Below, one piece after another: positions 23,502 through 26,810 of a stretch of DNA of 64,000 nucleotides. The DNA comes from Escherichia coli (lineage in GTDB: Bacteria; Pseudomonadota; Gammaproteobacteria; Enterobacterales; Enterobacteriaceae), in NCBI RefSeq assembly GCF_044324875.1, contig NZ_CP172185.1; one strand, written 5' to 3'. A model generated the notes under the pieces. It was given only the letters and a program-made list of their open reading frames with translations. It did no database searches and was not told the origin of the DNA. The position numbers were made by a program, and so were the translations under genes. Numbering within the stretch: the first letter of the stretch is position 1; each line of letters begins with the position of its first letter.

Positions 23502-25163
23502 ATGATTAACCGTATCCGCGTAGTCACGCTGTTGGTAATGGTGCTGGGGGTATTCGCACTGTTACAGCTTATTTCCGGCAGTCTGTTTTTTTCTTCCCTT
23601 CACCATAGCCAGAAGAGCTTTGTGGTTTCCAATCAATTACGGGAACAGCAGGGCGAGCTGACGTCAACCTGGGATTTAATGCTGCAAACGCGCATTAACC
23701 TGAGTCGTTCAGCGGTGCGGATGATGATGGATTCCTCCAATCAACAAAGTAACGCCAAAGTTGAATTGCTCGATAGCGCCAGGAAAACATTGGCCCAGGC
23801 AGCGACGCATTATAAAAAATTCAAAAGCATGGCACCGTTACCTGAAATGGTCGCTACCAGTCGTAATATTGATGAAAAATATAAAAACTATCACACAGCG
23901 TTAACTGAACTGATTGATTATCTTGATTATGGCAATACTGGAGCTTATTTCGCTCAGCCAACCCAGGGAATGCAAAATGCAATGGGCGAAGCGTTTGCTC
24001 AGTACGCCCTCAGCAGTGAAAAACTGTATCGCGATATCGTCACTGACAACGCAGATGATTACCGATTTGCCCAGTGGCAACTGGCGGTTATCGCGCTGGT
24101 GGTGGTATTGATTCTGCTGGTGGCGTGGTACGGCATTCGCCGTATGTTGCTTACACCGCTGGCAAAAATTATTGCTCACATTCGCGAAATCGCCGGTGGT
24201 AACCTGGCGAATACCCTGACCATTGACGGGCGCAGTGAAATGGGCGACCTGGCGCAGAGCGTTTCACATATGCAACGCTCTTTGACTGACACCGTCACTC
24301 ATGTGCGTGAAGGTTCAGATGCTATCTATGCCGGTACCCGTGAAATTGCGGCGGGCAACACCGATCTTTCCTCCCGTACGGAACAGCAGGCATCTGCGCT
24401 GGAAGAAACTGCCGCCAGCATGGAGCAGCTCACCGCGACAGTGAAGCAAAACGCCGATAACGCCCGCCAGGCCTCGCAACTGGCGCAAAGTGCCTCCGAT
24501 ACTGCCCAGCATGGCGGCAAAGTAGTGGATGGTGTAGTGAAAACGATGCATGAGATCGCCGATAGTTCGAAGAAAATTGCCGACATTATCAGCGTTATCG
24601 ATGGTATTGCCTTCCAGACTAATATCCTCGCGTTGAATGCCGCTGTTGAAGCCGCGCGTGCGGGTGAACAGGGCCGTGGTTTTGCTGTGGTGGCGGGCGA
24701 AGTGCGTAATCTTGCCAGTCGCAGCGCCCAGGCGGCAAAAGAGATCAAAGCCCTCATTGAAGACTCCGTCTCGCGCGTTGATACCGGTTCGGTGCTGGTC
24801 GAAAGCGCAGGGGAAACAATGAACAATATCGTCAATGCTGTCACTCGCGTGACTGACATTATGGGCGAGATTGCATCGGCATCGGATGAACAGAGCCGTG
24901 GCATCGATCAAGTCGCATTGGCGGTTTCGGAAATGGATCGCGTCACGCAACAGAACGCATCGCTGGTGCAGGAATCAGCTGCCGCCGCAGCTGCGCTGGA
25001 AGAACAGGCCAGTCGTTTAACGCAAGCGGTTTCCGCGTTTCGTCTGGCAGCCAGCCCACTCACCAATAAACCGCAAACACCATCCCGTCCTGCCAGTGAG
25101 CAACCACCGGCACAGCCACGACTGCGAATTACTGAACAAGATCCAAACTGGGAAACATTTTGA
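23502..25163 (+). CDS. tar: Tar, methyl-accepting chemotaxis protein II (aspartate/maltose)
   Basis: 553 aa from [11 protein letters not shown]; HAMP and MCP signalling domain; C-terminal NWETF pentapeptide. Confidence 0.95.
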
Positions 25164-25208
25164 CGAGTTTTTACTAACGCGGTCATTGCCGCCTGATGGG
25201 GAGCGTTG

Positions 25209-26810
25209 ATGTTTAATCGTATTCGAATTTCGACCACGCTGTTTTTAATTTTGATTCTCTGCGGGATCTTGCAGATTGGCAGTAACGGCATGTCTTTTTG
25301 GGCATTTCGCGACGATTTGCAACGACTGAATCAGGTCGAGCAGAGCAATCAGCAACGTGCGGCATTAGCGCAAACTCGGGCGGTAATGTTACAGGCCAGT
25401 ACCGCGCTGAACAAAGCGGGCACTCTGACGGCGCTCAGCTATCCGGCGGATGACATTAAAACGTTGATGACGACGGCGCGCGCCAGTCTGACGCAATCCA
25501 CCACGCTGTTTAAAAGTTTTATGGCGATGACTGCGGGCAATGAGCACGTCAGGGCGTTGCAAAAAGAGACGGAGAAAAGTTTTGCCCGCTGGCACAACGA
25601 TCTCGAACATCAGGCGACCTGGCTTGAAAGTAATCAACTTTCGGATTTCCTTACTGCGCCGGTGCAGGAATCACAGAATGCGTTTGACGTTAACTTTGAG
25701 GCCTGGCAGCTGGAGATCAACCATGTGCTGGAAGCCGCCAGTGCGCAAAGCCAGCGTAACTATCAGATTTCGGCGCTGGTGTTTATCAGCATGATTATTG
25801 TTGCGGCGATCTACATCAGCAGTGCGCTGTGGTGGACGCGCAAGATGATTGTTCAACCACTGGCCATTATCGGTAGCCATTTTGACAGCATTGCTGCGGG
25901 TAATCTGGCGCGTCCGATTGCGGTGTATGGTCGCAATGAGATCACCGCCATTTTTGCCAGCCTGAAGACCATGCAGCAGGCTTTGCGTGGGACGGTAAGT
26001 GATGTGCGTAAGGGAAGCCTGGAGATGCACATTGGTATCGCGGAGATTGTCGCAGGCAATAACGATCTCTCAAGTCGTACCGAACAGCAGGCGGCATCGC
26101 TGGCACAAACGGCCGCCAGTATGGAGCAATTAACCGCCACGGTAGGGCAAAACGCCGATAACGCACGACAGGCGTCGGAACTGGCAAAAAATGCCGCGAC
26201 AACGGCGCAGGCGGGCGGTGTTCAGGTCAGTACCATGACTCACACCATGCAGGAGATCGCCACCAGCTCGCAAAAAATTGGCGACATTATCAGCGTTATC
26301 GACGGCATTGCTTTCCAGACCAATATTCTGGCCCTGAATGCGGCAGTGGAAGCGGCTCGCGCCGGAGAGCAGGGTCGTGGTTTTGCGGTAGTGGCAGGTG
26401 AAGTGCGCAATCTTGCCAGCCGTAGCGCGCAGGCAGCAAAAGAGATCAAAGGGCTGATCGAAGAGTCAGTCAATCGTGTCCAGCAGGGTTCGAAACTGGT
26501 GAATAACGCCGCCGCGACCATGACTGATATTGTCAGTTCGGTGACCCGCGTGAACGACATTATGGGAGAAATTGCTTCGGCCTCGGAAGAACAACGGCGG
26601 GGGATTGAGCAGGTTGCGCAGGCTGTCAGCCAGATGGATCAGGTGACACAGCAGAACGCCTCGCTGGTAGAAGAAGCGGCGGCGGCAACGGAACAACTGG
26701 CGAACCAGGCTGACCATCTTTCGTCGCGTGTGGCGGTATTTACCCTTGAAGAACATGAAGTAGCACGACATGAGTCGGCGCAGTTACATATTGCGCCAGT
26801 GGTATCCTGA
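25209..26810 (+). CDS. tap: Tap, methyl-accepting chemotaxis protein IV (dipeptide/pyrimidine)
   Basis: 533 aa from MFNRIRISTTLFLILILCG; MCP signalling domain highly similar to tar; lacks NWETF. Confidence 0.95.
   Translation: MFNRIRISTTLFLILILCGILQIGSNGMSFWAFRDDLQRLNQVEQSNQQRAALAQTRAVMLQASTALNKAGTLTALSYPADDIKTLMTTARASLTQSTTLFKSFMAMTAGNEHVRALQKETEKSFARWHNDLEHQATWLESNQLSDFLTAPVQESQNAFDVNFEAWQLEINHVLEAASAQSQRNYQISALVFISMIIVAAIYISSALWWTRKMIVQPLAIIGSHFDSIAAGNLARPIAVYGRNEITAIFASLKTMQQALRGTVSDVRKGSLEMHIGIAEIVAGNNDLSSRTEQQAASLAQTAASMEQLTATVGQNADNARQASELAKNAATTAQAGGVQVSTMTHTMQEIATSSQKIGDIISVIDGIAFQTNILALNAAVEAARAGEQGRGFAVVAGEVRNLASRSAQAAKEIKGLIEESVNRVQQGSKLVNNAAATMTDIVSSVTRVNDIMGEIASASEEQRRGIEQVAQAVSQMDQVTQQNASLVEEAAAATEQLANQADHLSSRVAVFTLEEHEVARHESAQLHIAPVVS

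Follow-up and report, generated by a model that had tools for sequence, protein, structure and literature searches.

Tandem genes whose 3′ halves resemble each other raise the question of whether they can recombine into one hybrid gene and, if they do, how much shared DNA such an event uses. The window analysed here, a 64,000-nt stretch of Escherichia coli DNA, carries the chemoreceptor genes tar and tap side by side on the same strand, flanked by cheW and cheR (Table 1). That the two are paralogs, that they differ in the NWETF pentapeptide and that they may form tar-tap hybrids is already known and long established. Both genes are intact in the window and no recombinant is present there, and the matter is of little importance for the window itself. 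Hybrids of this kind are known from laboratory work, to which the survey of natural fusions adds modestly.

Architecture of the tar-tap locus

Tar, Tap and both natural hybrids that we tested carry the domain set of Tar/Tsr/Trg/Tap-type methyl-accepting chemotaxis proteins, with Pfam matches to TarH (E-value ~1e-41), HAMP (1e-9 to 1e-11) and MCPsignal (1e-56 to 1e-63). The RefSeq annotation behind the tar call comes from genomes that are 98–99.9% identical. The C-terminal NWETF pentapeptide, a mark of high-abundance, adaptation-autonomous receptors, is present in Tar and absent from Tap (...HIAPVVS) and from all natural hybrids found (...QIAPVVS). NWETF is the tether for CheR and CheB; Tap and Trg lack it, and it acts in trans (PMC7390727; PMC4692393).

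Table 1 Features of the tar-tap locus, in window coordinates
Feature	Position	Strand	Size	Basis or remarks
tar (aspartate/maltose chemoreceptor, MCP II)	23502-25163	+	553 aa	ORF and translation, Pfam, RefSeq annotation
Homologous block, tar copy (Tar aa 274-515)	24321-25046	+		Ungapped against tap at +1701 nt; 69% nucleotide, 73% amino-acid identity
Crossover interval, fourth fusion class	24375-24391 (tap copy 26076-26092)	+		L010
Crossover interval, third fusion class	24411-24418 (tap copy 26112-26119)	+	8 nt	L009, L015
Second-longest identity run, GCAAAACGCCGATAACGC	24446-24463 (tap copy 26147-26164)	+	18 nt	Crossover interval in ETEC4088, L013, L014
Longest exact tar/tap run, CGACATTATCAGCGTTATCGA	24581-24601 (tap copy 26282-26302)	+	21 nt	Crossover interval in ET474, PEC389, L006-L008
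NWETF codons (Tar C-terminal CheR/CheB-tethering pentapeptide)	25146-25160	+		Translation ends ...EQDPNWETF, then stop; role: PMC7390727, PMC4692393
tar-tap intergenic spacer	25164-25208	+	45 nt	From gene coordinates; fusions without spacer
tap (dipeptide chemoreceptor, MCP IV)	25209-26810	+	533 aa	Ends ...HIAPVVS, without NWETF
Homologous block, tap copy	26022-26747	+		Pairs with tar copy 24321-25046

Register and identity of the direct repeats

The 3′ halves of tar and tap, which encode the signalling domain, are gap-free direct repeats offset by exactly 1701 nt. In the proteins, Tar 118–515 aligns with Tap 116–513 without a gap, such that Tar residue i corresponds to Tap residue i−2. Nucleotide identity is 69% over the 726-nt block 24321–25046; within it, repeat D1 (24543–24842 and 26244–26543) reaches 76%, repeat D2 (24333–24517 and 26034–26218) 74%, and the best core, the 225 nt of 24546–24770, 82%. 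Over the whole genes, identity is 54% for DNA and 47% for protein. The best 100-nt window on the diagonal stands at 84%, no patch of high identity appears anywhere along it, and the three longest perfect runs measure 21, 18 and 16 nt. Between tar and tap there are no blocks of tens to hundreds of nucleotides at ~95–100% identity, the kind of substrate that RecA uses efficiently.

The first-pass annotation had described tandem paralogs in direct orientation with long near-identical stretches. The tandem arrangement on one strand holds, at an offset of 1701 nt; the near-identity does not, given a longest run of 21 nt and 69% identity over the block. Its example pairing of tar 24560–24730 with tap 26270–26440 (offset 1710) lies 9 nt out of register and amounts to a chance control at 33.9% identity, whereas the true partner, 26261–26431, is 80.7% identical.

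Protein constraint and gene conversion

Over 45 consecutive residues (Tar aa 364–408) at which Tar and Tap are 100% identical, nucleotide identity is ~80% and that of third codon positions just 43%, which argues that the DNA similarity of the two genes is mostly protein constraint and not recent gene conversion. Third-position identity across the conserved core is 43–57%. These values point to old repeats, with synonymous sites close to saturation.

The phrase "near-identical stretches" implies another reading, concerted evolution, in which ongoing gene conversion keeps the 3′ halves alike in DNA. Codons for identical residues do coincide more often than codon usage alone would predict (49% versus 38–39%, P ~0.002), and a core at 82% identity would also suit such a process. 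However, a recent conversion would show up as a tract longer than 50 nt with ~100% identity, and neither the 21-nt longest run, nor the 84% reached by the best 100-nt window, nor the low third-position identity in the stretch of identical residues is what conversion should leave behind. Patchy identity tracts, or synonymous divergence well below saturation, are absent from the tar/tap comparison. Recent conversion between the two genes appears largely refuted by this pattern, and we regard concerted evolution as highly improbable; a small share of very old gene conversion, or position-specific codon preference, may lie behind the same-codon excess.

Natural tar-tap fusions

A split tar/tap probe, run against 5,426 complete E. 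coli genomes, recovers the exact in-register 1701-nt deletion in three (~0.06%). The joined probe places span 1269 nt (2970 − 1701), and in each of these genomes the interval from cheW to cheR holds a single 1608-nt 'tar' CDS, whose product is a single in-frame 535-aa protein, Tar at its N terminus and Tap at its C terminus, ending ...APVVS. One change from tar-type to tap-type accounts for 777–783 of 782–786 diagnostic sites, and the 45-nt spacer is missing from fusion loci L002–L004. When proteins and contigs are looked up more widely, two more junction classes appear, together with many independent assemblies. One exact hybrid protein is present on 28 contigs (58 index blocks) and the other on 71 (140 index blocks), in every case within the gene order cheA-cheW-hybrid-cheR-cheB-cheY-cheZ; hybrid alleles are recorded as WP_098723133.1 and WP_096259879.1. 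Natural strains carry tar-tap fusions with at least four junction classes. The first-pass annotation proposed that recombination between the direct repeats can yield hybrids without NWETF, and the three complete genomes bear this out, as do the further junction classes and assemblies.

Many of the carrier contigs are products of short-read assembly (Logan, draft NCBI), in which paralogs collapsed by the assembler could pass for a fusion. We find this scarcely credible as the origin of the hybrids. The three carriers above are complete chromosomes, and two of them match exactly across 6.3 kb although they were sampled in different countries and from different hosts; the same exact proteins recur across the index blocks; every junction is a clean single switch, in frame; and assemblers would not be expected to collapse repeats at only 70–80% identity.

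Crossover junctions

In the three complete fusion genomes, the crossovers fall inside the two longest tar/tap identity runs (21 and 18 nt). The fourth-class interval has 11 nt of identity in the window, against as many as 17 nt in the hybrid L010. Taken over four events, the junction intervals are longer than those of crossovers placed uniformly along the block (P ~0.002). A stronger statement, that both events lie in the top two identity runs (P ~0.004), holds less firmly now that two more junction classes, whose intervals are shorter, are known.

Natural lineages of E. coli and Shigella between them contain at least four classes of in-register junction. The same junction also occurs on different allelic backgrounds, which differ by 1–1.6%.

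These junctions bear on whether tar and tap are recombinationally inert, alike in protein only and without effect on genome stability. The first-pass annotation had named a comparison of this kind, with no extended identity blocks and only protein-level similarity, as what would refute its claim, and the DNA comes close to it: 69% identity, runs of at most 21 nt and near-saturated synonymous sites. Both genes are intact in 4,321 of the 5,426 complete genomes by a full-region search, and the split probe gave just three fusions. Yet recombination does occur, at very short identity runs. In-register 1701-nt deletions are found in nature at four junctions, the most frequent of them in the longest runs, and fusions have reportedly been obtained in the laboratory (Slocum et al. 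1987). The chance that the pair is inert is, in our judgement, very slim.

Proposed deletion mechanism

The best explanation, which we hold to be very probable, combines an old duplication and protein constraint with a rare exchange at short identity that deletes 1701 nt and leaves an in-frame fusion of 535 aa. Long ago, one chemoreceptor gene within the tar-tap-cheRBYZ operon would have been duplicated in tandem to give tar and tap. Their sensing halves would have diverged past recognition in the DNA, while protein-level selection would have kept the cytoplasmic signalling halves, with the conserved hairpin that binds CheA and CheW, at 70–82% nucleotide identity. A rare exchange or template switch at an identical run of 8–21 nt would then delete exactly 1701 nt, in frame because the two halves align without an indel. 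In the product, a single gene transcribed and translated from the signals of tar, the sensing domain and HAMP of Tar would be followed by the signalling tip and C terminus of Tap.

For efficient RecA-dependent recombination in E. coli, a minimum of ~20–27 bp is reportedly the figure usually quoted (Watt 1985; Shen and Huang 1986), and the tar/tap runs, at 21 nt or less, are at or under this value. Divergence of ~20–30% should also set off mismatch-repair anti-recombination. Runs this short at such divergence would therefore make a poor substrate and events rare. The idea that near-identical DNA serves as the substrate gives way to perfect runs of no more than 21 nt and to events seen in ~0.06% of complete genomes. 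From the anatomy of the junctions, with intervals of 8–21 nt, we slightly favour a RecA-independent route, by misaligned replication or by annealing at short homology, rather than a RecA-dependent homeologous crossover. More generally, tandem paralogs can recombine without near-identical DNA: runs of 8–21 nt within ~70–80% identity suffice at low frequency, provided that the alignment is free of indels and the product is in frame.

Predicted consequences for chemotaxis

The hybrid is predicted to keep aspartate and maltose sensing and to lose the NWETF tether. It would be expected to adapt poorly alone and to rely on neighbouring NWETF-bearing receptors such as Tsr, and Tap-mediated dipeptide taxis should be lost in hybrid strains. 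We base these predictions on chimera studies that tie adaptation competence to the cytoplasmic domain and the NWETF tether. Engineered chimeras include Tar-Tap and Tap-Tar (Weerasuriya et al. 1998) and Trg-Tsr (Feng et al. 1997, 1999), and PMC4692393 and PMC7390727 report that competence for adaptation of the 'high-abundance' type depends on the cytoplasmic domain and the tether, and that the tether also works in trans. Those chimeras were cloned at chosen sites, whereas the natural hybrids arise by recombination at chromosomal repeats.

Comparison with known systems

Lepore-type fusion genes, such as human delta-beta globin, arise by unequal crossing-over between tandem paralogs. The tar/tap fusions have the same hallmarks: tandem paralogs in one orientation, collinear ungapped homology, a single parental switch and an in-register deletion of exactly one period, giving a hybrid with the N terminus of the first gene and the C terminus of the second under the promoter of the first. 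The globin paralogs are far more similar (>90%), whereas tar/tap exchange takes place at runs no longer than 21 nt in ~70–80% identity. The reciprocal 'anti-Lepore' duplication (tar, tap-tar hybrid, tap) was not found, a tap5′-tar3′ junction probe being joined in 0 of the 5,426 genomes; this negative is not decisive, since a duplication of that sort would be unstable.

Spontaneous tar-tap deletion fusions ('hybrid transducers') were reportedly isolated in E. coli K-12 by Slocum, Halden and Parkinson (J Bacteriol 169:2938, 1987), and are said to have shown altered signalling and adaptation. They are reported to involve the same two genes in the same orientation and to join the Tar N terminus to the Tap C terminus via the homologous 3′ regions, as here. 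They were laboratory isolates, whereas the present fusions come from natural isolates (many draft assemblies in addition to three of 5,426 complete genomes) and have their junctions at 8–21-nt runs. Functional chimeras are credited to Slocum et al. 1987 in PMC2229510. PMC6062612 mentions only Δ(tar-tap) strain genotypes, and a literature search for text on spontaneous tar-tap fusions turned up only a citation.

Loss of tap in B2 strains

Loss of tap in B2/uropathogenic E. coli was described by Lane et al. 2006, as cited in PMC3559539, and loss of this type affects about one fifth of the complete genomes here. It is a tap-internal deletion of ~1.37 kb (window about 25343–26716) at a short imperfect repeat, with tar and its NWETF intact. 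Tap function is removed in a natural lineage at the same locus, but not by tar-tap recombination. Some 1,100 genomes that cover only 61% of the tar-tap query were considered as tar-tap recombinants and rejected, their alignment showing the tap-internal deletion with tar intact. Tls (PMC12623472) was considered in connection with the truncated B2 tap and dropped, being a Trg-like protein.

Wider distribution and annotation

E. fergusonii as a species appears to have a single Tar in which the linker and NWETF are replaced by the last Tap residues (...RLTAPVVS), apparently through an out-of-register tar-tap deletion. That Tar-Tap fusion is more than an accident, being a path that chemoreceptor evolution in Escherichia takes repeatedly and at times under selection, seems to us unlikely, though worth keeping in mind. 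Should aspartate receptors without NWETF confer a benefit, for instance in certain hosts by altering adaptation kinetics or the stoichiometry of the receptor array, they would constitute a natural experiment on the CheR/CheB tether. In public annotation, the hybrids go by the plain name "methyl-accepting chemotaxis protein II", and the loss of Tap and of the Tar tether is therefore invisible in surveys of chemoreceptor gene content.

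The tar–tap repeat

Both tar and tap are intact in the window, which holds no recombinant, and its chemotaxis region matches thousands of complete E. coli genomes at 98–99.9% identity. Annotation and conservation both place the starts at the ATG codons 23502 (tar) and 25209 (tap); the mechanically called ORFs open at TTG 23481, 21 nt 5′ of the former, and at TTG 25206, just 5′ of the latter. Each receptor contains TarH, HAMP and MCPsignal domains. The paralogy of the two genes, their difference in the CheR-tethering pentapeptide NWETF and the formation of tar–tap hybrids are established knowledge. 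The translated C-termini (Tar ...QDPNWETF; Tap ...HIAPVVS) bear out the first-pass annotation, which had assigned the pentapeptide to Tar and not to Tap.

Features of the tar–tap locus, fusion junctions and out-of-register fusion proteins (window coordinates)
Feature	Position	Strand	Size	Remarks
cheA	20815–22833	+		chemotaxis region of the window
cheW	22854–23357	+		chemotaxis region of the window
tar (MCP II)	23502–25163	+		annotation in complete E. coli genomes 98–99.9% identical to the window
tap (MCP IV)	25209–26810	+		annotation in complete E. coli genomes 98–99.9% identical to the window
cheR, cheB, cheY, cheZ	3′ of tap, in that order	+		
Direct-repeat family 1	24543–24842 / 26244–26543			76% identity
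Direct-repeat family 2	24333–24517 / 26034–26218			74% identity
Junction class	24581–24601		21 nt	longest perfect tar/tap run; tap copy 26282–26302
Junction class	24446–24463		18 nt	second perfect run; tap copy 26147–26164
Junction class	24375–24391		11 nt in window, up to 17 nt in hybrid	
Junction class	24411–24418		8 nt	
P0017			771 aa	singleton E. coli out-of-register Tar–Tap protein
P0018			688 aa	singleton E. coli out-of-register Tar–Tap protein
P0027			656 aa	singleton E. coli out-of-register Tar–Tap protein
P0028			680 aa	singleton E. coli out-of-register Tar–Tap protein

A repeat search returned two direct-repeat families, both with a start-to-start spacing of 1701 nt. Protein-guided alignment of Tar 118–515 with Tap 116–513 required no gaps, so the entire cytoplasmic half lies on a single diagonal. 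Nucleotide identity along this diagonal is 69% over 726 nt (24321–25046), with 82% in the core (24546–24770) and 84% in the best 100-nt window, and the third-longest perfect run is 16 nt. The repeat is genuine and far above chance, but the "long near-identical" stretches of the first-pass annotation shrink to perfect runs of at most 21 nt. The stretch offered there as an example is 80.7% identical to tap in the true register; as quoted, its coordinates were 9 nt off register and give 33.9% identity, which also gauges the chance level.

Across Tar residues 364–408 the two proteins are 100% identical, while their nucleotides are ~80% and their third positions 43% identical. The same codon is used in 49% of the 176 identical-residue codon pairs in the homologous block, against 38–39% expected from che-gene codon usage alone (simulation, P ~0.002). 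These values place synonymous sites near saturation, and high-identity tracts between tar and tap are absent from the diagonal; recent gene conversion does not account for the similarity. It is essentially constraint at the protein level, on the conserved hairpin of the signalling domain, that keeps this old duplication similar; the small same-codon excess left over could reflect gene conversion of great age or a preference for particular codons at some sites.

Natural fusions in complete genomes

As a population sample for recombination, 5,426 complete E. coli genomes were used in place of sequencing reads. With the whole tar–tap region as query, 4,321 keep both genes and ~1,100 cover only 61% of it. 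The latter are not tar–tap recombinants: they carry a ~1.37-kb deletion internal to tap (~25343–26716; UM146 type, B2/UPEC), with tar intact, which is found in about one fifth of the genomes and has its junction at an imperfect 14-nt repeat (AATCAGGTCGAGCA / AACCAGGCTGACCA). In these genomes all that survives of tap is an N-terminal remnant with a frameshift (L001, 3310–3461). The deletion corresponds to the tap loss already described for B2/uropathogenic strains (Lane et al. 2006, as cited in PMC3559539) and is distinct from tar–tap recombination.

Fusions were detected with a split probe (tar 24030–24329 plus tap/cheR 26700–26999), whose halves merge only if at least ~1.57 kb between them is absent. 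They merged in three of the 5,426 genomes, each time across 1269 nt (= 2970 − 1701). ETEC4088 (pig, Belgium), ET474 (frog, China) and PEC389 (pig, Korea) each have one 1608-nt CDS, annotated "tar", between cheW and cheR. When all sites at which the window tar and tap differ were scored as tar-type or tap-type, each hybrid changed cleanly and only once, from tar-type to tap-type; 777–783 of 782–786 diagnostic sites agree with this. ETEC4088 switches inside the 18-nt run, whereas ET474 and PEC389, whose sequences match each other exactly over 6.3 kb, switch inside the 21-nt run; no tar/tap identity runs are longer than these two. Collapse of the repeat during assembly is a very unlikely source, since the exact hybrid proteins recur in NCBI, ENA and Logan assemblies, on 28 and 71 contigs (58 and 140 index blocks), always in the order cheA-cheW-hybrid-cheR-cheB-cheY-cheZ.

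When one hybrid served as query in a homology search and the matches were typed residue by residue, further 535-aa hybrids emerged. Their DNA sorts the hybrids into four junction classes. All four junction intervals fall within the 5′-most 39% of the block, and they exceed the length expected from uniform crossovers along it (P ~0.002). Comparison of the hybrid gene (locus positions 2501–4108) and its flank (4109–6608) places the 18-nt junction on two backgrounds (L005 versus L014; 25/1608 gene and 24/2500 flank sites differ) and likewise the 8-nt junction (L009 versus L015; 15/1608 and 27/2500 nt). A junction shared by backgrounds ~1–1.6% divergent reflects either repeated fusion events at one short run or an ancient fusion with allelic exchange afterwards.

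Mechanism of deletion

Each hybrid has lost exactly one repeat period in register, with the switch within a short identical run, and because the tar/tap alignment is free of indels the hybrid gene stays in frame with its heptad register kept. The event formally resembles Lepore-type unequal crossing-over between tandem paralogs, although the tar–tap repeats are much more diverged. The minimal segment processed by RecA is ~20–27 bp, and divergence also meets mismatch-repair anti-recombination; runs of at most 21 nt, at or below this size and amid 20–30% divergence, are therefore a poor RecA substrate. RecA-independent misaligned replication or annealing exploits such microhomologies, if inefficiently at a spacing of 1.7 kb, and we lean slightly towards this route. 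The two halves of a reciprocal probe for the duplication product (tap 5′ with tar 3′) came together in none of the complete genomes, which fits a non-reciprocal mechanism; duplications would be unstable in any case. The hybrids anticipated by the first-pass annotation do occur (3/5,426 complete genomes; four junction classes over all assemblies), but not from the near-identical substrate it had assumed.

Predicted properties of the hybrids

With the periplasmic domain and HAMP of Tar retained, the hybrids should bind aspartate as well as maltose-binding protein; they gain the Tap hairpin tip and C-terminus, without linker and NWETF. This pentapeptide, found on Tar and Tsr only, tethers CheR at ~2 µM affinity, also binds CheB and can work in trans on neighbouring receptors (PMC7390727; PMC4692393). 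Because it is lost, the hybrids should adapt poorly alone and depend on Tsr, and Tap-mediated taxis would be lost in hybrid strains. Hybrids isolated in the laboratory by Slocum et al. 1987 reportedly behave in agreement with this predicted phenotype. Where PMC2229510 cites Slocum et al. 1987, it does so for functional chimeras only. In one hybrid-bearing draft (GCA_907172595.1; L008, 4127–4986), a 1-nt indel breaks cheR into two ORFs of 210 and 89 aa, a hint that adaptation is decaying further in this strain, unless it is an error of sequencing.

Other candidate fusions

Out-of-register yet in-frame Tar–Tap fusions are rare singletons of 656–771 aa. P0017, P0018, P0027 and P0028 join a Tar N-terminal part to a Tap C-terminal part and are over-long, with HAMP or signalling segments duplicated; illegitimate deletion could have produced them, or faulty assembly.

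The E. fergusonii 'Tar' (P0073, P0072; 519–521 aa) belongs to a cluster of 74 members and occurs on 15 contigs. On a metagenome scaffold (L011, 3001–4560) the gene is Tar-like to window position 25051, then encodes ...RLTAPVVS and a stop, and runs into the tap–cheR spacer. Its sequence looks like the product of an out-of-register tar–tap deletion at a GCCAG microhomology, which seems to have taken the Tar linker, NWETF and almost all of tap. Upstream of tar in L011, a fimbrial usher/SCPU operon stands in place of cheW. To our knowledge, neither the survey of natural fusions nor the E. fergusonii observation has been reported; both are incremental additions to a known phenomenon.

P0084, a 535-aa enterobacterial receptor (L012, 130–1737, on a 2.4-kb contig of Logan SRR11450272), is nearer E. 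coli tar in its 5′ part (71%) and nearer tap in its 3′ part (77.5%), ends in ...VPVVS and is followed by cheR; it may represent an independent tar–tap fusion outside E. coli.
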